NCBI GenBank assembly: GCA_947311445.1
Contig: CAMZKV010000004.1
Span: forward strand, 5,364-69,363
DNA length: 64,000 nt
Origin: an uncultured Chlorobiota bacterium
Lineage (GTDB): Bacteria; Bacteroidota; Bacteroidia; Bacteroidales; JAADGE01
Direction of reading: 5' to 3'
Under the pieces are notes generated by a model. It had not been told where the DNA came from. It worked only from the letters and a program-made list of their open reading frames with translations, and did not search any database. Positions 27,508 through 58,031 of the stretch are shown here, piece after piece. Position numbers and translations under genes: made by a program. Every line of letters begins with the position of its first letter. Positions within the stretch are counted from its first letter, which is position 1.

Positions 27508-28890
27508 TTGAATAATTTTTTAATTAAAATATTAGGTAATCCAAACAAATTTGAGCTAAAGCACAGAGTTTCCAATGCTGTTATACTAATTGGAATTTTT
27601 TTAGGAATACAATCTTCTATATTCAATTATCTTTTAGGCTTACCAGAGATTACAGTTACTGCAACCATTGGGACATCAGCAATCTTAATTTTTGCATATT
27701 ATTTATCGAGAATAAAAGGAATATTTGAGATTTCTGTTTACATTTCGTTATTTGTAAGTTTAGTGATTTATACTCCTGTTATGTGGATTGGAAATGGCGG
27801 TTCTTCCGGCGGATTTCAATATTACATATTTGCTTATTTAACTTTTGCAATTGCTGTTATAAATAAAAAATCTATAATAATTCCAATAGTTTCATTCGTT
27901 GTTTTTTTGTCTGTTTTTCTATTAGTTTATGAATATAAGTTTCCAGAAAGAATATTTGATTATCCCAGTCCGATTGATAGGTTATTTGATGTAACGTTGA
28001 GTTTTGTGAGTGTACTTGTTGGGGTTTCTTCATTGTTTTTTATTTACACAAATTTATATAAAAAAACAAATTCGATACTTGAAAGTACAAATAGAGAGTT
28101 AAATAAGCAAAGGCAAATTCTTGAGAATCAAAATGAATATATAAATGATGGTATTTTATATGCTCAAAAAATACAAAAAGCTGTTCTTCCATCAATAGAT
28201 ATTATTAATAAAAATTGTAAAGAAAACTTTATTTTTTATCTTCCAAAAGATAAAATTAGTGGAGATTTTTTTTATTTTACAAAAAAAGACAATAAAATAA
28301 TAATTGCAATTGCAGATAGTACCGGGCATGGAATTCCTGGTGGTTTTATGTCTATGCTGGGTTTAACAATGCTTAAGGAAGTAATTGATAATTACGAAAA
28401 TGAGAATCCTGCTAAAATTTTAAATATTTTAAGAGAAAAGATAATTGTTTCCCTAGACCCAAAAAACAAAAGACCAATTACAAATGATGGCTTTGATATT
28501 GCTTTAAGTATTATTAATACTAAAACAAAACAACTTAATTTTGCGGGTGCTAATTTACCTTTATTACTTATTAGAAATAATAAGATTACATATTTTAGTT
28601 CCGATAAGATGCCAATAGGAACTTTTATTTCTATGCCAAATTTTAAGAATCAACATTTTGACCTAAAAGAAAATGATACGATTTATATGTTTACTGATGG
28701 AATAATTGATCAATTTGGAGGGAAAGCAAATAAGAAATTTACATTGAACAGGCTTCAAGAATTATTAATTAGATATTCTGAGGAACCTCTTAGTTTTCAA
28801 AAAGAAAAAATTAAGAAGGCTTTAAGAAATTGGAGAGGCAAACAACAAAAAACTGATGATGCCCTTATTATGGGTGTTAAGGTTTTCTGA
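27508..28890 (+). CDS. Multi-pass membrane sensor fused to PP2C/SpoIIE serine phosphatase
   Basis: 460 aa; TTG start; about six N-terminal TM helices; coiled linker; PP2C block IADSTGHGIPGGFMSMLG ... FTDGIIDQFG ... DDALIMGVKV. Confidence 0.8.
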   Translation: MNNFLIKILGNPNKFELKHRVSNAVILIGIFLGIQSSIFNYLLGLPEITVTATIGTSAILIFAYYLSRIKGIFEISVYISLFVSLVIYTPVMWIGNGGSSGGFQYYIFAYLTFAIAVINKKSIIIPIVSFVVFLSVFLLVYEYKFPERIFDYPSPIDRLFDVTLSFVSVLVGVSSLFFIYTNLYKKTNSILESTNRELNKQRQILENQNEYINDGILYAQKIQKAVLPSIDIINKNCKENFIFYLPKDKISGDFFYFTKKDNKIIIAIADSTGHGIPGGFMSMLGLTMLKEVIDNYENENPAKILNILREKIIVSLDPKNKRPITNDGFDIALSIINTKTKQLNFAGANLPLLLIRNNKITYFSSDKMPIGTFISMPNFKNQHFDLKENDTIYMFTDGIIDQFGGKANKKFTLNRLQELLIRYSEEPLSFQKEKIKKALRNWRGKQQKTDDALIMGVKVF

Positions 28891-31106: not shown

Positions 31107-32279
31107 TTATATTACTAACTGCAGAATAAAATAAGAAGTTTTAGTGTTTATGTTTTTAAAAAGGTAATAGATATTATTATTATTTTTTAACTTCATATCT
31201 ATTAAATTTAAATCGGGTTTTTTAGAAACATCAAATGCGTAAAATTGCTCAATATAATTTCGTATTTTTGCTAATCCGTCAGGATTTGTTTTGTTAATGA
31301 TTCTTATTTTACTGCCTAATATTATTGCTTTATCATTTAAAATAAGATTTCCCGCAGTTAAATATATTTTTTTACCTTTTTTACTTAATAAAAACACGCC
31401 TCTACTATTTCTCTTTCTGGGAGTATTCCCATTTTGGTCTTCAAATTTATCTGCGAAATCAATAATATTCCTTAGTGCTTTTACTGTGAAATCAAAAACT
31501 TTCTTTTTTATTTCATTACCTCCAATTGAATGAGATTCAATTATAGGCAAAAGGTGTGTGAGATTTTCAAAGGCAAAAGAACCGTTAAAATTAAGAAGAA
31601 TGTTATCTTCATTTAGTAAATCATGAAATTTTGATATCCTTTTTAGAGAAAATAATTTATCATTTACTACCTCTTTGAAAGTGTCAGAAAAAACTAATCT
31701 TATTTGAAAATAAAAATAAGAATATGAATCATTTATTTTTTTAAAATAAAAATCAAATCTGCCTTTTGTTCTTCTTGCCATTCCAATTATGCCAAGACCT
31801 CCTCCTCCTTTTTCAGAAATAATACCGTCAGTCATTTTTTTATGGTAAGCTTTCTTTAAACTTTCATTATTATGATTCTTTATTTCTGATAAGTATTGTT
31901 CAAGTTCTAATATATTTTTATTTTCAATTACATTTCCGGTACTAATAAATATAGAGTCTTTTGTTTTTTGTATAACAAAAAGGCTTTTATTGTCAACATC
32001 TTCATCTTCAGATTTATCTTGATGTCTTATTACATTTTGAAGAGTTTCAATTAAAATAGAAGATATCTTCTTCCTGCTTCCCGAAACATCTTTATCATTG
32101 ACAAATTTTGCATCTGCTAGTCCTAATATACTTTCTGTTATTTTTTCAGAAAAATTGCCTCTATAGACATATTCAACGTATTCTTCATCAACTGATTCAG
32201 TCATTTTATATGCTAAATCAATTTGAGAAACATTTGTTTCCTTTTCTATAAAAAAATTATTTGAAATAAAATCTTTCAT
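31107..32279 (-). CDS. SiaB-like GHKL serine/threonine kinase fused to a degenerate second SiaB-like domain
   Basis: 390 aa. The N-terminal half has N-box-like ETLQNVIRH and ATP-lid EKGGGGLGIIGMARR (anti-sigma/SiaB kinase type). The C-terminal half aligns block for block but has KALRNIIDF and KKPDLNLIDMKLK instead. Confidence 0.6.
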   Translation of the reverse strand: MKDFISNNFFIEKETNVSQIDLAYKMTESVDEEYVEYVYRGNFSEKITESILGLADAKFVNDKDVSGSRKKISSILIETLQNVIRHQDKSEDEDVDNKSLFVIQKTKDSIFISTGNVIENKNILELEQYLSEIKNHNNESLKKAYHKKMTDGIISEKGGGGLGIIGMARRTKGRFDFYFKKINDSYSYFYFQIRLVFSDTFKEVVNDKLFSLKRISKFHDLLNEDNILLNFNGSFAFENLTHLLPIIESHSIGGNEIKKKVFDFTVKALRNIIDFADKFEDQNGNTPRKRNSRGVFLLSKKGKKIYLTAGNLILNDKAIILGSKIRIINKTNPDGLAKIRNYIEQFYAFDVSKKPDLNLIDMKLKNNNNIYYLFKNINTKTSYFILQLVI

Positions 32280-32468: not shown

Positions 32469-33572
32469 TTATTCTGCATTTATTATTTTACCAAGAAGAT
32501 ATTTTTTAAACATTGATTTTTTTCCATTTTCGTTATAAAAAACCCAAATTTCATTTTTTAAATCACCTTTATAATTTCCTTCTGAGGAAACGTGTCCGTT
32601 TTTATAGTAAAATTTCCATTTTCCTTCAGCTAATCCTTTTTTAAATTTTCCAATTTGTTTTAAATTTCCATTTGTAAAATAAACTTTCCAAATTCCTTCA
32701 AATTTTCCATTCAGGTAGTTTCCTTCAGAAAATATTTTTTTATTAGGGTAATATGATTTCCAATGTCCAATTCTCTTATCTTCATTATATTGCCCCTCTT
32801 CTGCAAGTATTCCATTTGCATGATATACTTTGTATTCTCCATTGATATGCCCATTTTTATAATGATAAACTCCGCTTAAAGTTTTGTTTTTATAAAACGC
32901 ATAAAACTTGCTATTTAGTTTTCCGTTTTCATAAAAGCATTTCCTTTGTAAGTTGTTATTTTTATAATAAACATATAGAGTATCAAAATATAAATCACCT
33001 TTTTTTTTTCCTTTATAATTTAACTCTCCTGTATCATAATAGGTTTCAAAATAACCTTCAATTCTATTATTCTTATATGTAAGCAATTCTTCTTTTAATC
33101 CGTCTTCTTTAAATTTTTCAACAGTTCCGTGTAAAATTCCATTTTTGTATTGCCCTATAATTTTAATTTTTCCATTCAAATAATAAGTTGTAAGTTTTCC
33201 TTCGGGTAAGTTATTTTTATACTTGCCCTCTTGTTCTAATTCTCCGGTTTTATAATAGTGATAAAATTTACCATTTTTATTGTTTTCGTGAAAATGAATT
33301 TTTGATTTTATTTCTCCTGTTTTGTAATATAAAATCCAGTCTCCTTCCAAATTATTATTAAAGAAAATACCTTCTTGTAATTTTTTGCCATTTTTAGAAA
33401 AGAATATATATTTTCCATTCTTTATTGTGTCATTTGCTTTTATTTCAGCAAAATATTTTTCTTTTACACGATTATTTGTGTCAGAATAATAACTCACAAA
33501 ACTTTTTTGGGCATAAGTTAAAATTGGCAAAAAGAATATATAAAAAGTAAGGAAAACAATAGGCTTATTCAT
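32469..33572 (-). CDS. Secreted MORN-variant repeat protein (YwqK-like)
   Basis: 367 aa; signal peptide; about 14 consecutive ~23-aa repeats of the G-x-W/Y-x-x-Y-Y-x-N-G-x-L/I type. Confidence 0.75.
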   Translation of the reverse strand: MNKPIVFLTFYIFFLPILTYAQKSFVSYYSDTNNRVKEKYFAEIKANDTIKNGKYIFFSKNGKKLQEGIFFNNNLEGDWILYYKTGEIKSKIHFHENNKNGKFYHYYKTGELEQEGKYKNNLPEGKLTTYYLNGKIKIIGQYKNGILHGTVEKFKEDGLKEELLTYKNNRIEGYFETYYDTGELNYKGKKKGDLYFDTLYVYYKNNNLQRKCFYENGKLNSKFYAFYKNKTLSGVYHYKNGHINGEYKVYHANGILAEEGQYNEDKRIGHWKSYYPNKKIFSEGNYLNGKFEGIWKVYFTNGNLKQIGKFKKGLAEGKWKFYYKNGHVSSEGNYKGDLKNEIWVFYNENGKKSMFKKYLLGKIINAE

Positions 33573-33597
33573 AGTGTAAAACTATAGAGTTTTTATA

Positions 33598-34431
33598 TTA
33601 TTCTTTTTCTTTTTTCTTGTCAATAACTAAGAGTGTTTCTTTCAATCTTACTCCTTTAATTGTGGTAGCTTTGCCATAATCTAAAAGGGCAACTAATTCA
33701 TATTTTCCGGGCATCATTGTCTTAGGCAAAGTAAACTGAACATTTCTTTTGCAATTTGGGTATGAATCTAAATAAATAGGGTCAAACCTTATTTCTTCGG
33801 CAGTAGTCATGTCAGATGCAATAAAAGTAACTTTACATTTTTCTATAAGTTGTCCTTTGTTTTCAATTACAGCTGAAAAAATACGCCCAATTGAGTCTGT
33901 ACTGTTATTTTCTTTCAAATACTTTATTGTTAAGTCCGATTTTGCATCTGAAACTGGTTTTCTAAATACATGGACAGCAATTCTTCCACTTAAATTAATA
34001 CCTGCACCAATAGCCGATTTGTCCACATCAAAACTAACTTGTTCTTTAACTGTTTGAATGTACATTATTGCCCATCTTGAAGTGTTGTCTTCGGCAGGAG
34101 ATTCTAGAGTAACTTTTAAATTAATTTGTTCATTTGGATTTATCTCAAAAAAAGTTTTTTCAATTGTTATCCAGTCTGCACAAGAATTTTTAGAAGAATT
34201 TCTTTTCATAATCTGTTTATTGCCGTTCACATCAACCGTGAAATCCGCAAAAGTAACAGAAAAAGATGTTTTAAAATTTGAGTGGTTTTTTACAGACAAT
34301 AATTTTGTTTGAGACTCTCCCTCATCAACGGTAAATTCCATTATAACAGGAGAAACCTCAAAGTCTTGAGAGTATATATTTTTATTAATATTAAAAAAAA
34401 TTAGTATAAATAATCCAATGTATTTAAGCAT
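33598..34431 (-). CDS. Secreted two-block all-beta (Ig-like) protein, possible periplasmic chaperone-like component
   Basis: The ORF track starts at TTG 34476. I prefer the in-frame ATG at 34431 (MLKYIGLFILIFFNINKNIYSQ signal peptide), because 34474-34481 is a TAnnTTTG box. The mature ~255 aa shows alternating beta patterns in two blocks (FEVSPVIMEFTVDEGESQTKLLSVKNHS ... ; ... KCKVTFIASDM ... PGKYELVALLDYG). The functional call is inference only. Confidence 0.45.
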   Translation of the reverse strand: MLKYIGLFILIFFNINKNIYSQDFEVSPVIMEFTVDEGESQTKLLSVKNHSNFKTSFSVTFADFTVDVNGNKQIMKRNSSKNSCADWITIEKTFFEINPNEQINLKVTLESPAEDNTSRWAIMYIQTVKEQVSFDVDKSAIGAGINLSGRIAVHVFRKPVSDAKSDLTIKYLKENNSTDSIGRIFSAVIENKGQLIEKCKVTFIASDMTTAEEIRFDPIYLDSYPNCKRNVQFTLPKTMMPGKYELVALLDYGKATTIKGVRLKETLLVIDKKKEKE

Positions 34432-34473
34432 TTTTTTGGTGTTTTTTATTAAATTTCTTTTTATTAAAATTTT

Positions 34474-34481
34474 CAAATTTA
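34474..34481 (-). promoter_or_regulatory. -7 box for Ig-like/MORN operon
   Basis: TAAATTTG on the minus strand, 42 nt before ATG 34431. Confidence 0.45.
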
Positions 34482-34632: not shown

Positions 34633-36537
34633 ATGAAAACAACTAAATTTTATACTGTTTTTTTGATAGTAATTTTAATACTCTCTTTTAATATTCAGTC
34701 CTTTTCTCAATTTTCGGATAAAGATAAAGAAAAATTAAATAAATATTTGGCTTCGGCAAAAGAATATCAAAAAAATGACGAAAATAAAAAAGCTGCAAAC
34801 CAATATTACAAAGCCGGTAGATTTTGTTTAACTAAAGGGGAAAACAAGAAAGCAATACCTTATTTTAAAGAATCATATAAAATTTATGGGCAAATTAAAG
34901 ATTTTCAAAATGTAATGAAAATATACAGTAATTTAGGGTTATTATATGCAAATTTAGACCAAAATGACAAGGCATTATTATATTTTCAAAAAAGTTTAAA
35001 AATAAGAAAAAATTTAGGAGATAAATCTCAGATTTCATCTGGTTTATTAGATTATGCCTATGTTTTGGCAATTAAGGATGATTATAAAAATGCAATAAAA
35101 AATACAATTAGAGCTCTCGATATTGCAAATGAAATTCAAAATCCAAAACTTCTTCTTATTAGCTATAGAATGCTTGCAGAAAATTACCAGAAAATTGGCA
35201 ATGAACAAAAAGCTGCCGAATATCTTGATAAGTTTGCTTCGTACAGACAACACTTTAAGGAAACAAAAACAAAAGAGTTGGTAACAGAAGAAAGGATCAA
35301 ATCAATTGCAGAACTCAGCATTAAAGATGCTGAAGCAAAAGCAAAACAGCTCGAATATGAATTAATGAAAAAAAACAAAGAGTTTATTGAAGATACATTA
35401 AATAGGGCTATTGAAATTCAACGAGCAATGATAAAAGCTAAAAACGATTCAATTGCACGTGTTGAAGCTATTGTAGAGCAAGAAAAAATGAAAAACGAAT
35501 TAGTGAAGGCTGAACTTAACAGAGATAAAGCCCAACAAAGATTAACATTGATAATATTTTCCAGTATAGTAGCTTTTGTTCTATTTATTGCTCTTGTATT
35601 GCTTTTTAACATAAAAAGAAGAAAGAAACATAATAAAATGTTATCAATAACTAACCAAAAAATTGCAGAGCAGAATAAAAAAATTGAAATAAAAAATGAA
35701 GAGCTTACTAGTGCTTTCATGAAAATTGAAAGTCAAAATTATGATATAAATTCAAGTATAAATTATGCTGTTAATATCCAAAGAGCACTACTCCCTCCGC
35801 AAAGGAATTTAAATAAATACATAGACAATTCATTTATTTTTTTTAAACCAAGAGATAAAGTTAGTGGTGATTTTTATTGGTTCAAAAATATTGCAATTGA
35901 GAATGGAGATGAAATAATTGAAAAAACTTTTGTTTCAACAATTGATTGTACGGGGCATGGAATTCCGGGTGCATTTTTATCAATGATGAGTTATAACTTG
36001 CTTGAAAATATAATTGAACAAAAGAAAATTTATGAACCCGCAAAAATTCTTGATGAATTACATGAAGGGGTAAGAAAATCTTTAAGGCAAGACACATCTG
36101 AAAATAGAGATGGGATGGATATGTCTTTGTGTTGTTATGACAAAAAAAGTAACTTATTGGAATTTGCAGGAGCAAAGAACCCACTAATATATATTAAAGA
36201 TAATAAATTAGATAGAATAAAAGGAGATATAAAACCAATTGGCGGGGTTATTTTTGATAAAACTGAAACAAAAAGATTTACTAACTATTCTATTGAAATA
36301 GATGAGCCAACAACGGTATATATATACTCAGATGGATTTGCTGACCAAACAGGAGAAGAAACAGGAAGAAAGTTAATGTCTAAGTTTTTTAGGAATCTAT
36401 TATTTGAAATTCATAAAAAACCCATGGAAAATCAAAGAGATATTTTGAAACTTTTTTTACAAAAATGGCAAGGAAGTATTGAACAAACTGACGATATACT
36501 AGTAATTGGGTTTAAACTATTTCCAAATAATATTTGA
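34633..36537 (+). CDS. Periplasmic TPR sensor / single TM / cytoplasmic PP2C-SpoIIE serine phosphatase
   Basis: 634 aa; signal peptide; TPR-like repeats (residues ~40-200); coiled coil; TM LTLIIFSSIVAFVLFIALVLLF; PP2C block IDCTGHGIPGAFLSMMSY ... YSDGFADQTG ... DDILVIGFKL. Confidence 0.8.
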   Translation: MKTTKFYTVFLIVILILSFNIQSFSQFSDKDKEKLNKYLASAKEYQKNDENKKAANQYYKAGRFCLTKGENKKAIPYFKESYKIYGQIKDFQNVMKIYSNLGLLYANLDQNDKALLYFQKSLKIRKNLGDKSQISSGLLDYAYVLAIKDDYKNAIKNTIRALDIANEIQNPKLLLISYRMLAENYQKIGNEQKAAEYLDKFASYRQHFKETKTKELVTEERIKSIAELSIKDAEAKAKQLEYELMKKNKEFIEDTLNRAIEIQRAMIKAKNDSIARVEAIVEQEKMKNELVKAELNRDKAQQRLTLIIFSSIVAFVLFIALVLLFNIKRRKKHNKMLSITNQKIAEQNKKIEIKNEELTSAFMKIESQNYDINSSINYAVNIQRALLPPQRNLNKYIDNSFIFFKPRDKVSGDFYWFKNIAIENGDEIIEKTFVSTIDCTGHGIPGAFLSMMSYNLLENIIEQKKIYEPAKILDELHEGVRKSLRQDTSENRDGMDMSLCCYDKKSNLLEFAGAKNPLIYIKDNKLDRIKGDIKPIGGVIFDKTETKRFTNYSIEIDEPTTVYIYSDGFADQTGEETGRKLMSKFFRNLLFEIHKKPMENQRDILKLFLQKWQGSIEQTDDILVIGFKLFPNNI

Positions 36538-53493: not shown

Positions 53494-53874
53494 TTAAGGA
53501 TTTAAAGGAATTAAAGTAAAAGGAATATTAATTAGTTCTGTTAAATCTTCTCCCATTTCCATAATGTCTTCATCGTCTTCATCGTAATACCAATTTATTT
53601 TAATATCTTTACCATTATCTAAAAGAGAATTTAGTTTAAGAAGAATTTGGAAAATCTTTTTATGGGAAGAGCTGTTAAGTACAGTAAAATAAAATTCACA
53701 AATTAATTCTTTGTCAAGTTTAGGGATTTCACTATCAATCCAATCCAAAATAGGGTTTAAAATTTCAATTACATCCTCAGAAAAAGAAGGTCCTTTTATT
53801 TGAAAAATATTTTCTTCAATGTTTAAATTGACTAGTGGGGTCTTTTTGGTTTTTTTTATGTAAATATTTTCCAT
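53494..53874 (-). CDS. DUF1987 domain protein (SiaC-like partner-switch component)
   Basis: 126 aa; typical DUF1987 layout: KTPLVNLNIEENIFQIKGPSFSED, ILDWI, EFYFTVLNSSSHKKIFQIL, INWYYDEDDEDIMEMGED. Confidence 0.7.
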   Translation of the reverse strand: MENIYIKKTKKTPLVNLNIEENIFQIKGPSFSEDVIEILNPILDWIDSEIPKLDKELICEFYFTVLNSSSHKKIFQILLKLNSLLDNGKDIKINWYYDEDDEDIMEMGEDLTELINIPFTLIPLNP

Positions 53875-54037: not shown

Positions 54038-56098
54038 TTAAGATTTTATAAGTTCAATACTTCTTTTTACAAATTTGCTTAAAGATTCTCCTTTTAACAT
54101 ATTGTTTGCAAGTAATCCTAAATCAATTAGCTGGTTAACAATCTTTTCTGAATTTCCAAATTTAGATAAAATTTCCTTTTTATCATTTTCCACCTTACTT
54201 AGTTCTTTATTTAGTTCTTCTTTTTTGTCTTTTTCTTCTTGTGGTATTTCTTCTTCTTTTTTGTCTTTCTGTAATTTGCCAAGTGCTTCAATATCTGTTT
54301 TTAAGCTATTAATTTCTTTATCAAATTTCTCTAAATCTGCGCCTATCTTGTCATACATTTTGTCTTTTAGTTCAGAAACCAACTTGTGGTTTGAGTTTAT
54401 TACAAGATTATAACTGTCGGGTAAATTTCCATAGAAACTTGCTTCTCCTCCCATTTTTGACATATCTTTCATTCGTCTCATAAACTCATTTTGAGTTATT
54501 ATTGTTGGGTTTGATGTTTCAGATAAGGCTTCAAAATTTACAAGGAAAGTAGTATCTTTCGGTAATTGGCTTTGAAATACTGAATTTAAGTTTGCTTCAT
54601 CGTCTGAACTTAATTTTGACTCAAAACCATCTTCCTTAGCAATAAGTTTGTCAATAACATCTGCATCAACTCTTGTGAAACGTTTTCCTTGCATTTTGGT
54701 TTCAATATTATTGATAAAATGTGCATCTAACTGTCCATCCATAACAAGAACATCATATCCTTTTTCTTTTGCTTCTTCAATAAAACTATACTGTCCCTCT
54801 TTGTCTGTTGTGTACAAATAAATTATGTTTCCGTCTTTATCTGTCTGGTTTGGTTTTACAAGTTCTTCATATTCGTCAAAAGTAAATTTCTTATCTTCGG
54901 TATTATTTAGCAAAAAGAATTTCATAGCTTTTTCATGGAATTTCTCATCACTAAGCATTCCATATTCTATAAAAACTTTCAAATCTTGCCATTTTTTTTC
55001 AAAATCCTCTCTCTCTTTTGTAAAAATTTCCTTTAATCTGTCAGCAACTTTTTTTGTAATATGGCTGGAAATTTTTTTAACATTTTTGTCGCTTTGCAAA
55101 TAACTTCTTGAAACATTAAGAGGAATATCCGGAGAATCAATAACTCCATGTAATAAAGTCATAAATTCAGGAACAATTCCTTCAACAGAATCTGTTACAA
55201 AAACTTGTCGTTGGTATAGCTGAATTTTATTCTTTTGAATTTCAATGTTGTTTGTAAATTTTGGAAAGTACAAAATTCCGGTTAAATTAAAAGGATAATC
55301 TACGTTAAGATGAATATGAAACAACGGATCATCAAAAGTCATTGGATATAGCTCTTTATAAAAATCCTTGTAGTTTTCATCAGATAAATCACTAGGTTTT
55401 TTTGTCCAGGCAGGGCTTGTGTTATTAACAATCTTATCTTTTTCAATTTTTTTACCATCCTCAGTTTTTTCTTCTTTGCCAAATGCAATTTCAACAGGTA
55501 AAAACTTACAGTACTTATTTAAAAGTTCAGTTATTTTAGAATCTTCTAAAAAATCTTTTGAATCTTCATCAATATGTAAAACTATGTCAGTCCCTCTTTT
55601 TTCTTTTTCAATTTCCTTTAATTTGAAATTTGGGCTACCATCACATTCCCATCTAACAGCTATTGAATCATCTTTGTAAGATTTTGAAATTATTTCAACT
55701 TTTTCCGAAACCATAAAAGAAGAATAAAATCCTAAACCAAAATGTCCAATAATTGCATTTTTCTCATCTTTATATTTGTCAAGAAATTCTTCTGCACCAG
55801 AAAATGCTATTTGGTTTATATATTTGTTAATTTCATCAGCATCCATTCCTATTCCTGCATCAGAAATTGTTATAGTTTTTGCTTTTTTATCTGCTTTTAT
55901 ACGAATTGTTAAATCTCCTAATTCTCCTTTGTAATTACCTTTTGAAGAAAGAATTTTTAATTTTTGAGTCGCATCAACTGCATTCGAGATTAATTCACGC
56001 AGAAAAATTTCGTGATCAGAATAGAGGAATTTTTTTATTATTGGAAATATGTCTTCCCCTGTTACTTTTATTTTTCCTTTTTTTGATTTATTTGCCAT
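54038..56098 (-). CDS. htpG: Molecular chaperone HtpG (Hsp90)
   Basis: 686 aa; GHKL N-domain FLRELISNAVDA and GHFGLGFYS; full-length Hsp90 layout. Confidence 0.95.
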   Translation of the reverse strand: MANKSKKGKIKVTGEDIFPIIKKFLYSDHEIFLRELISNAVDATQKLKILSSKGNYKGELGDLTIRIKADKKAKTITISDAGIGMDADEINKYINQIAFSGAEEFLDKYKDEKNAIIGHFGLGFYSSFMVSEKVEIISKSYKDDSIAVRWECDGSPNFKLKEIEKEKRGTDIVLHIDEDSKDFLEDSKITELLNKYCKFLPVEIAFGKEEKTEDGKKIEKDKIVNNTSPAWTKKPSDLSDENYKDFYKELYPMTFDDPLFHIHLNVDYPFNLTGILYFPKFTNNIEIQKNKIQLYQRQVFVTDSVEGIVPEFMTLLHGVIDSPDIPLNVSRSYLQSDKNVKKISSHITKKVADRLKEIFTKEREDFEKKWQDLKVFIEYGMLSDEKFHEKAMKFFLLNNTEDKKFTFDEYEELVKPNQTDKDGNIIYLYTTDKEGQYSFIEEAKEKGYDVLVMDGQLDAHFINNIETKMQGKRFTRVDADVIDKLIAKEDGFESKLSSDDEANLNSVFQSQLPKDTTFLVNFEALSETSNPTIITQNEFMRRMKDMSKMGGEASFYGNLPDSYNLVINSNHKLVSELKDKMYDKIGADLEKFDKEINSLKTDIEALGKLQKDKKEEEIPQEEKDKKEELNKELSKVENDKKEILSKFGNSEKIVNQLIDLGLLANNMLKGESLSKFVKRSIELIKS

Positions 56099-56243: not shown

Positions 56244-58031
56244 TTATTCAACAACACCTCTGAAAGCAGATTTGTCGATAAAGTTCAAGAATTCTGCATC
56301 TTTTTTAGCATAATCTTTTAATTTGCTATCTTTTGAAATAGCTATTCTTAAATATTCAATAAGGTCATCAATTTTATTAGCCTTGGCAGCAGTTACTGCT
56401 TTTAAATAATAAAATAATCCATATTCGCTACTTCCTAAATTGTCTAATGTACTTATTGCACTATCATTGTCTCCTGCAAGAGTTAAAGCTAATGCTTTAT
56501 TAAATGAGTCGGATGAGAATTTATCAACAGCATCACTATATTTTCCTCTTTTGATTAAAATTACACCTTTATTATAAGGTAAACTTGGAGATTTGCAACC
56601 TGCATTTTCTGCTCTTTCAAAATAATCCCAAGCAGCATCAAGATCACCTTCTGCTAAGGCAAGTACTCCTAGATTGTTTAAAGCTGCAGGATTTGTATTG
56701 TTAGAGGAAAGTACTTTTTCAAAGTTTTTTCTTGCTTCTGAATATTTACCTTCTTTTGCTTGTATTGATGCTAAGTTATTCCATCCTTTCCAGTCAGTAG
56801 GGTATTTACTTGTATATGTTTTATATGCGTTTTCTTTATTGTTTCCTTCACTAATTGAAGCTGCATATATTAATTCTTCTTGGTATAATCCACCAGAGTT
56901 TCCTCCTGAAGATGCCATAGTTTTTAATTCATTATCAGATTTTGCTCTTCCTTGAAATTCAAATTTAATTTCAGAACGTCTTAATAATGGAAGTATGTCG
57001 TTTCTTAAGTTGTCATAAACAGCCGCAAGTTTTTTAATTTCTTCTTCTCTTGTGTCTGGGTCTGAATACATACTTAATACTCTTAATACTAAGTCTTTAT
57101 CTTCCATATTAGAAGCTGCAACTGCACTTTTGAATCCTTCCCAGTCTTCTGCTGGTGTAGTTTCGGTAATTACAAAATCATTATTTTGAAATTCAGAAAT
57201 TTCATCTTTTGAGAATTCTTTTTCAAAAGATTTTTTAGAGTTTGTTCCTCTTTCTGATACTAGTTTAGCATTTAAATCTTCTGGTCCGTCAGGAGATGCG
57301 TAACTTGCAATTTTAATAGATTTAATTTCTTTATCCGGATTAGTTGCTGCATTTCTTATTGAATTTTTAAGACTTTCAAGTTCTTCTTTATTAAGTTGGT
57401 TTTTGTTAACTCTAGATTTTTGAAGGTCAAAAAATAACTTTGCAGTTTCTGTTTCTAATCTTACTTTTGGTTTAGTGATAGGAACTTCTACAATTTGACC
57501 TAATGATGTGCCTCTTTTTAAGCCACCATCAATTGTCATTCCTCCGTCAACTAATTCAGGAGTAGTAATAATACCATCTGCAAGTTTAATTTCTGTTCCG
57601 TTTGCAGATTTACCTTTTTGAGTTGAAATTAAAAAGTTCAATTTTAAATCAGATGCTCTAAATTTAGGGTCATAATTAATTGTATCTTTAAAAGTAAAGC
57701 TACCTCCTTCTTTAAAACTAATAGTTTCGTAGTTATCTTCAAATTTCTCCCCTATTATTGTTTGAGTCTTAAACTTTACTTGTTCAGAAGAGCTAAAGTC
57801 TGAAACTAAAGAAGGTGTTATAACTAATTTTACTTTTTTACCAAAGTATTTTGGAGGGAATGTAACCTTTACGTCAATAGGAACTTTGCCTGCGTGCATT
57901 TCTAAAGGCTTAGGAGTAGTTTTATATTCTACGTCTCCTGCATTTTTTACCATTTTTTTCAATGGATTACAAGCTGTAAACAATACAGCTACTATTAAAA
58001 GTGATGAAAGAATAACTATCGATTTCTTCAT
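56244..58031 (-). CDS. Lipoprotein with C-terminal TPR repeats
   Basis: 595 aa; lipobox LFTAC; C-terminal TPR-like repeats (WNNLASIQAKEGKYSEARKNFEKVL, LNNLGVLALAEGDLDAAWDYFERA). Confidence 0.65.
   Translation of the reverse strand: MKKSIVILSSLLIVAVLFTACNPLKKMVKNAGDVEYKTTPKPLEMHAGKVPIDVKVTFPPKYFGKKVKLVITPSLVSDFSSSEQVKFKTQTIIGEKFEDNYETISFKEGGSFTFKDTINYDPKFRASDLKLNFLISTQKGKSANGTEIKLADGIITTPELVDGGMTIDGGLKRGTSLGQIVEVPITKPKVRLETETAKLFFDLQKSRVNKNQLNKEELESLKNSIRNAATNPDKEIKSIKIASYASPDGPEDLNAKLVSERGTNSKKSFEKEFSKDEISEFQNNDFVITETTPAEDWEGFKSAVAASNMEDKDLVLRVLSMYSDPDTREEEIKKLAAVYDNLRNDILPLLRRSEIKFEFQGRAKSDNELKTMASSGGNSGGLYQEELIYAASISEGNNKENAYKTYTSKYPTDWKGWNNLASIQAKEGKYSEARKNFEKVLSSNNTNPAALNNLGVLALAEGDLDAAWDYFERAENAGCKSPSLPYNKGVILIKRGKYSDAVDKFSSDSFNKALALTLAGDNDSAISTLDNLGSSEYGLFYYLKAVTAAKANKIDDLIEYLRIAISKDSKLKDYAKKDAEFLNFIDKSAFRGVVE

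Follow-up and report, generated by a model that had tools for sequence, protein, structure and literature searches.

A tandem SiaB-family kinase with a degenerate but conserved second half in an uncultured Bacteroidota bacterium

The window analyzed here, a 64,000-nucleotide stretch of contig CAMZKV010000004.1 from the genome of an uncultured Bacteroidota bacterium, carries on its minus strand a gene (31107–32279; P0001) whose product consists of two SiaB-family GHKL domains in tandem. The first domain (half 1) has an intact ATP site, while the second (half 2) has lost its catalytic Glu and its glycine lid but is maintained by purifying selection. A first-pass annotation of this DNA had described the 390-residue product as an internal duplication, and the two halves indeed match each other block for block along their full length (BLASTP E 3e-10, 23% identity over 177 columns). 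Their homology is further borne out by membership in the same Pfam and NCBIfam families. Pfam DUF6272 (PF19788) matches twice, at residues 66–189 with 109 bits (half 1 scanned alone) and at residues 255–384 with 57 bits, and the NCBIfam SiaB_fam_kinase profile (NF038262) gives 169.1 bits for the whole protein, 112.9 for half 1, and 67.3 for half 2. On its own, half 2 falls below the NF038262 cut-off of 85 bits, yet exceeds the DUF6272 cut-off of 26.6 bits. Both profiles place half 1 among GHKL/SiaB-type kinases, as the annotation had supposed, rather than in some other family. No Pfam match to the SpoIIAB/RsbW-type domain HATPase_c_2 was found at E ≤ 1, and the SiaABCD equivalog profile NF038264 scored 61.9 bits against a cut-off of 225.

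Half 1 retains the full set of family ATP-site residues: E78, Q81, N82, H86, N116, and the lid glycines G158, G159, G161, and G163. The annotation's statement that the N-box Glu, Asn, and His and the glycine lid survive in this half is thus correct. When 61 tandem homologues are aligned, half 1 is invariant at E78, Q81, N82, N116, G158, G159, G161, G163, and F179. E78 aligns with the Glu of the motif YIEMTQN in P. aeruginosa SiaB, and by position it appears to be the counterpart of E61, for which Poh et al. predicted a catalytic role; an additional residue at the N-terminus of the deposited chains, visible in the SiaC alignment, bears on the E61 numbering. In half 2, the only invariant columns of the same alignment are N271 and N311. 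The catalytic Glu is replaced by K267, the Gln by R270, and the His by F275, and the lid reads KKPDLN in half 2 versus GGGGLG in half 1. Half 2 had been described as having lost both the N-box and the lid, and this holds for the Glu, the His, and all four lid glycines; it does not hold for the Mg-site N-box Asn, which is kept as N271 and is invariant among the 61 homologues, and the Asn of the TxGN motif (N311) is also still present.

Both halves have the fold expected of the family. An AlphaFold2 model of the protein, built on the 61 homologues, has a mean predicted local distance difference test score (pLDDT) of 80.1 and a predicted template modeling score (pTM) of 0.80, with the same order of helices and strands in the two halves. 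Structural alignment with VIA-align placed P. aeruginosa SiaB (6kko_A) on residues 208–390, in half 2 (Z 16.4, root-mean-square deviation 2.7, 164 of 170 residues), and placed UsfX, SpoIIAB, and RsbW on residues 31–199, in half 1 (Z 9.3–11.1); Foldseek also recovered 6kko_A (E 4.7e-7, target TM 0.78). The model thus represents both halves as complete SiaB/SpoIIAB-type GHKL domains, and since a pTM of 0.80 is high for a two-domain chain, it suggests that the halves adopt a fixed mutual arrangement. The lid of half 1 has a pLDDT of 52, as expected of a flexible lid, and the lid of half 2 has a pLDDT of 72–78.

Half 2 is constrained rather than decaying. The ratio of non-synonymous to synonymous substitution rates (dN/dS), calculated by the Nei-Gojobori method against L103 and L104 (both orthologues of 94% identity; 13–21 synonymous and 7–13 non-synonymous differences), is 0.136 for half 2 and 0.11–0.12 for half 1. 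Across a 45-member orthogroup, mean pairwise identity is 66.9% in half 2 and 65.2% in half 1, and the rebuilt lid is predominantly KPD(L/I)xLIDM(K/R)LKN, with a few substitutions. This conservation of half 2 and of its lid suggests that the domain is more than a scaffold. Since half 2 has lost the Glu and the lid but remains under purifying selection, and the site of half 1 is intact, the label "kinase-pseudokinase tandem" proposed in the annotation is apt. The fold of half 2 is kept, its catalytic residues are lost, and selection maintains it, as in a pseudokinase; it is presumably inactive. Coordinates of the gene, its parts, and the neighboring genes discussed below are collected in Table 1.

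Table 1. Positions in the window of the tandem SiaB-family gene, its domains and motifs, and associated genes.
Feature	Coordinates	Strand	Basis
Tandem SiaB-family gene P0001	31107..32279	-	Open reading frame and translation, 390 aa plus stop; two DUF6272/NF038262 domains
Half 1, residues 28-197, SiaB/GHKL kinase domain, predicted catalytically competent	31689..32198	-	NF038262 112.9 bits, ATP-site residues, fold
Half 1 N-box ETLQNVIRH (E78, N82, H86)	32022..32048	-	Coordinates verified by translation
Half 1 glycine-rich ATP lid EKGGGGLGIIGM	31779..31814	-	Translation; pLDDT down to 52
Inter-half linker, 14 residues (198-211)	31647..31688	-	Coil in model; mean pLDDT 64 for residues 201-210
Half 2, residues 212-390, pseudokinase copy of SiaB domain	31110..31646	-	DUF6272 57 bits; 6kko_A fold match; dN/dS 0.136
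Degenerate N-box of half 2, KALRNIIDF (K267 for E, R270 for Q, F275 for H; N271 retained)	31455..31481	-	Alignment, translation
Half 2 rebuilt lid SKKPDLNLIDM, 0 of 4 lid glycines, two residues shorter	31194..31226	-	Alignment, translation
SiaC (DUF1987), 126 aa, putative cognate, Ser68 at acceptor position	53494..53874	-	Pfam SiaC 113.5 bits; alignment; orthology
Tetratricopeptide repeats (TPR) and C-terminal SpoIIE/PP2C phosphatase, probable SiaA counterpart	34633..36537	+	Pfam TPR and SpoIIE; synteny
Two conserved same-strand upstream genes: 292-aa protein and 367-aa MORN_2-repeat protein	32469..34476	-	Pfam MORN_2; synteny only
Second SpoIIE/PP2C phosphatase, possible alternative partner	27508..28890	+	Pfam SpoIIE 87.8 bits

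The covalent fusion had been regarded as unusual, and in this respect the annotation overstated the case. A HMMER search of 1.84 billion representatives (clustered at 50% identity) returned 2276 relatives at E ≤ 0.001, the best 150 of which are all of tandem length, and among genomes sampled once per prokaryote species, relatives are encoded at 453 loci, the best 80 of which are all tandem. A word-indexed search gave 85 clusters of almost exclusively 357–390 aa, together with four longer proteins (about 500 aa) to which a SiaC domain is fused. The best 80 loci, which form the set examined for architecture, neighbors, and SiaC linkage, lie nearly all in metagenome-assembled genomes labeled Bacteroidota (Bacteroidales, Marinilabiliales, Salinivirgaceae, Draconibacterium, and Flavobacteriales); a few carry the label "Chlorobiota" or "Chlorobi," and a single one is labeled "uncultured Anaerolinea sp." Of 301 evenly sampled Bacteroidota genomes, 22 have DUF6272, and four of these, including the source genome, have the tandem. 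From these counts, the covalent tandem is a common, undescribed Bacteroidota form of SiaB and not a rarity: our literature searches on DUF6272 and on SiaB together with pseudokinase returned nothing relevant, and the search on DUF1987 returned only the SiaC-SiaD paper.

The combination of an intact half 1 with a half 2 lacking both Glu and lid is a minority state of this tandem. In a census of 146 representatives it was found in 10, the gene at 31107–32279 being of this type. Most commonly (84 of 146), an intact half 1 is paired with a half 2 that keeps the Glu and two or three of the four lid glycines; in a further 21 both halves are intact, and in 18 half 2 keeps the Glu and has lost the lid. 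The remaining representatives have partial lids in both halves (6), a partial lid in half 1 with an intact half 2 (5), a lost lid in half 1 with a partial lid in half 2 (1), or a lost Glu in half 1 with an intact half 2 (1).

These states can be ordered on a domain tree that covers 34 first halves, as many second halves, and 5 single-domain paralogues. First halves and second halves each form a single group, with one change per label, and the two subtrees are congruent, which fits one old duplication behind all tandems; independent duplications in each lineage are contradicted by this grouping of all first and all second halves. Within the second-half subtree, a basal group with intact or near-intact lids (the C23 paralogue described below, P0077, P0081, and P0085) is followed by a 29-row clade (support 100) with (S/T)GLG lids. 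Nested in the latter is a 14-row clade (support 99), most members of which have a KPDL-type lid and have lost the His while keeping the Glu, and nested in turn within it is a 9-row clade (support 100) in which the Glu is lost. The stem of this 9-row clade measures 0.98 in half 2 versus 0.51 in half 1. Read from these nested clades, half 2 lost lid glycines first; the remainder of the lid and the His went next, and the Glu last. The direction of change is loss, because the intact state is found in single-domain SiaBs and in all first halves. The gene at 31107–32279 stands at the far end of this series.

The opposite polarity was also observed. In P0177, P0179, P0188, P0198, P0205, P0215, and P0231, it is half 1 that has a degenerate lid or has lost the Glu, next to an intact or better-preserved half 2; inactivation therefore struck either protomer in different lineages.

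The source genome (113 contigs, 2.75 Mb) itself contains several members of the family, with 11 DUF6272 domains in eight genes alongside 24 SpoIIE/PP2C domains and 13 SiaC domains. For so small a genome, these partner-switch parts are greatly expanded. A paralogous tandem on contig C23 (22878–25513; loci L004, L005, L013, and L016) has an N-box and a glycine lid in both halves, and four consecutive SiaC genes lie downstream of it on the same strand. On contig C88 (8113–9477; loci L002 and L014), a SiaB-SiaB-SiaC triple fusion of 515 aa keeps the N-box of half 2, with a lid reading ENPGLG; its SiaC domain follows half 2 through a linker of about 10 residues, and the same fusion is found at 15 of the best 80 loci. 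Together with the gene at 31107–32279, these two paralogues illustrate the half 2 loss series within one genome. Contig C37 (39641–40992; loci L007 and L011) carries adjacent single-domain SiaB-like genes of 179 and 205 aa, with lids GTGNIG and HSPNIG, beside a SiaC gene. This pair branches outside all tandem halves in the domain tree and may represent an unfused kinase/pseudokinase pair. No GGDEF domain was found in this 93.75% complete genome, and therefore the output known from Pseudomonas, the SiaD diguanylate cyclase, does not apply.

Gene neighborhoods link the tandem to SiaC. At 76 of the best 80 loci, SiaC is linked to the tandem gene, by fusion in 15 and as a touching gene in 61. The touching SiaC genes mostly lie next downstream on the same strand (52 of 61); the other nine are convergent, and in eight of these nine half 2 is fully degenerate. 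Convergent SiaC genes touch the 3' end of the tandem gene in L017 and L018 (59% identity) and in L019 and L020 (35%). On both flanks of an inverted block that extends from about 31.1 to about 53.5 kb (about 22 kb), the window and L017 are collinear. Because of these collinear flanks and the inverted block, the SiaC gene at 53494–53874, which the annotation had put forward as the partner, can be identified as the orthologue of the tandem-adjacent SiaC in L017, and the inversion explains why it lies 21 kb from the tandem gene here. The synteny thus upholds the proposed pairing. The two closest genomes (L103 and L104) have the inverted order too, with DUF4301 now convergent to the kinase gene. 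One breakpoint of the inversion falls exactly between the tandem SiaB gene and SiaC. The SiaC protein can be aligned to P. aeruginosa SiaC with no gaps, which puts S68 opposite the phospho-acceptor T68, and all 13 SiaC paralogues of the genome have Ser or Thr at this position.

A phosphatase gene is similarly placed across orthologous loci. The TPR-PP2C gene lies 2.35 kb upstream of the tandem gene in the window, and about 2.1–2.5 kb upstream, on the opposite strand, in all orthologous loci examined (L017, L025, L027, L029, L030, L103, and L104). The same two genes separate it from the tandem gene in these loci, and the gene order 274/357/SiaB recurs in L017, L019, L103, and L104. The adjacency of the second PP2C gene (27508–28890) is a consequence of the inversion and is restricted to the three closest genomes. 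A promoter and terminator scan gave no informative signal, with 15 promoter-like sites versus 10.8 expected and only one terminator-like site, inside the tandem gene on the opposite strand.

Upstream of SiaC, on the same strand, are genes for HtpG (54038–56098) and then for a TPR protein (56244–58031), and this trio is also present in L017. A functional link with HtpG was not adopted, since the adjacency of SiaC and HtpG occurs in the window and in L017 but not in L019 or L020; the association may be local synteny only.

Comparison with known systems shows how far the resemblance extends. P. aeruginosa SiaB (PA0171; 6KKO) shares with the present protein its family profiles, its fold, the N-box Glu and glycine lid seen in half 1, and the link to DUF1987/SiaC and a PP2C phosphatase. 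However, SiaB is a single domain of 181 aa that forms a homodimer, whereas here two domains are fused, one of them catalytically dead judging from its residues. SiaABCD also differs in its SiaD output, with no SiaD or GGDEF protein found in this genome, and in its acceptor residue, which is Thr in P. aeruginosa and Ser here. The intact or partially degenerate tandem SiaBs of Bacteroidota, such as those on C23 and C88, are alike in architecture, in their origin from one old duplication, and in having SiaC next to them or fused. Their second halves retain the ExxQN...H N-box together with a complete or partial GLG lid, whereas half 2 of the protein studied here lacks the Glu and the lid, and in other Bacteroidota tandems SiaC is co-transcribed or fused, whereas in the clade of the present gene it is convergent. 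SpoIIAB, RsbW, and UsfX share the fold (see the half 1 alignments above) and the general scheme of a kinase acting on a small antagonist and opposed by a PP2C phosphatase, but they are single-domain homodimers with a STAS substrate, whereas the linked substrate gene here is DUF1987. A sigma-factor link is a feature of SpoIIAB-type kinases, and none is shown here. More remotely, ChpT of Caulobacter, with its pseudo-CA domain, and the JH2-JH1 tandem of JAK kinases each retain a dead copy of a kinase fold for contacts or regulation. Both are analogies: ChpT is kin by the GHKL fold only (4fmt_A aligns to half 2 with Z 6.6, too low for more than a shared fold), and JAK has no family relationship. 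Against this background, what is new here is the stepwise decay of half 2, the position of this gene at the end of the series, and the SiaC partner recognized by synteny and inversion.

In P. aeruginosa, SiaB is a dimeric kinase that forms a 2:2 complex with SiaC, phosphorylates it on T68, and releases the product, and the PP2C phosphatase SiaA reverses this phosphorylation. We consider it likely that the gene at 31107–32279 encodes a cytoplasmic, single-chain version of the SiaB dimer, in which half 1 is the SiaC kinase and half 2 a pseudokinase protomer, with the TPR-PP2C protein opposing it. By homology, half 1 would phosphorylate the SiaC encoded at 53494–53874 on Ser68, while half 2 would stand in for the second protomer of the SiaB homodimer. 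Such a molecule would be obligately asymmetric: it would have a single active site in place of two, next to a conserved surface without catalytic function. The TPR-PP2C protein would probably remove the phosphate from SiaC in the manner of SiaA, and unphosphorylated SiaC would act on a target other than a diguanylate cyclase. Four points weigh against this reading. In the window, SiaC and the tandem gene are separated by the 21 kb noted above; the SiaC genes of this clade are transcribed convergently and not as operon partners; with 13 SiaC and 24 PP2C domains in the genome, the pairing is not certain; and half 2 retains N271, G310, and N311, so that some nucleotide binding is conceivable.

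Alternatively, the two halves may divide the labor, with half 2 acting as a non-catalytic module that binds unphosphorylated SiaC or the target of SiaC, such that the chain combines a kinase with a sequestering "anti-factor." SpoIIAB offers a parallel, since it both binds sigma-F and phosphorylates SpoIIAA. The predominance of the rebuilt-lid motif in the orthogroup and the conservation of half 2, at least as high as that of half 1, suggest a selected surface and not just a fold; in natural fusions, SiaC is always attached to the C-terminus of half 2; and the lid of half 2 is more ordered in the model than that of half 1. However, the conservation of half 2 could equally reflect its interface with half 1, and the SiaC fusions are found in the partial-lid clade and not in the clade of the gene studied here, and we regard this alternative as unlikely. 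Similarly doubtful is an evolutionary extension of the same idea, in which an internal duplication turned SiaB into a covalent dimer and one protomer, freed from catalysis, was remodeled stepwise into a new conserved surface that holds SiaC or its effector, yielding a one-chain kinase and sequestering factor within a Bacteroidota signaling network that has 24 PP2C sensors, 13 SiaC switches, and no cyclic di-GMP.

Half 2 might instead bind an adenine nucleotide and, as an ATP/ADP sensor, tune half 1 allosterically, a role that some eukaryotic pseudokinase domains play. Across the second halves of all tandems, the Mg-site Asn (N271) and the G310-N311 pair of the TxGN motif vary little or not at all, which would be in keeping with such a role. 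However, in the Bergerat fold of GHKL proteins the lid glycines hold the phosphates, and in half 2 all four are replaced, the lid is two residues shorter, and the Glu and His are lost, which leaves the sensor a decidedly improbable explanation. It is scarcely credible that the whole protein is non-catalytic, that it is an assembly or frameshift artifact of two genes, or that half 2 is decaying, since only the degenerate motifs of half 2 speak for such readings, while half 1 has every invariant ATP-site residue, a continuous tandem-length frame is conserved in 79 homologues and at the best 80 species-genome loci, and the dN/dS of half 2 is that of a constrained domain (0.136).

To our knowledge, work on SiaABC-type partner switching has been confined to Pseudomonas, in which the switch drives a diguanylate cyclase. 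Bacteroidota hold a large, unstudied expansion of SiaABC-type parts in which the kinase is often a fused pair. The tandem opens no new kind of mechanism, and the gene described here is no isolated case but an extreme representative of a large, unstudied family. Along the natural series that ends with this gene, catalysis is lost stepwise from the second protomer of a covalent dimer while that protomer stays under selection, and this series offers a clean system for examining both the role of the second protomer in GHKL partner switches and the origin of pseudoenzymes.

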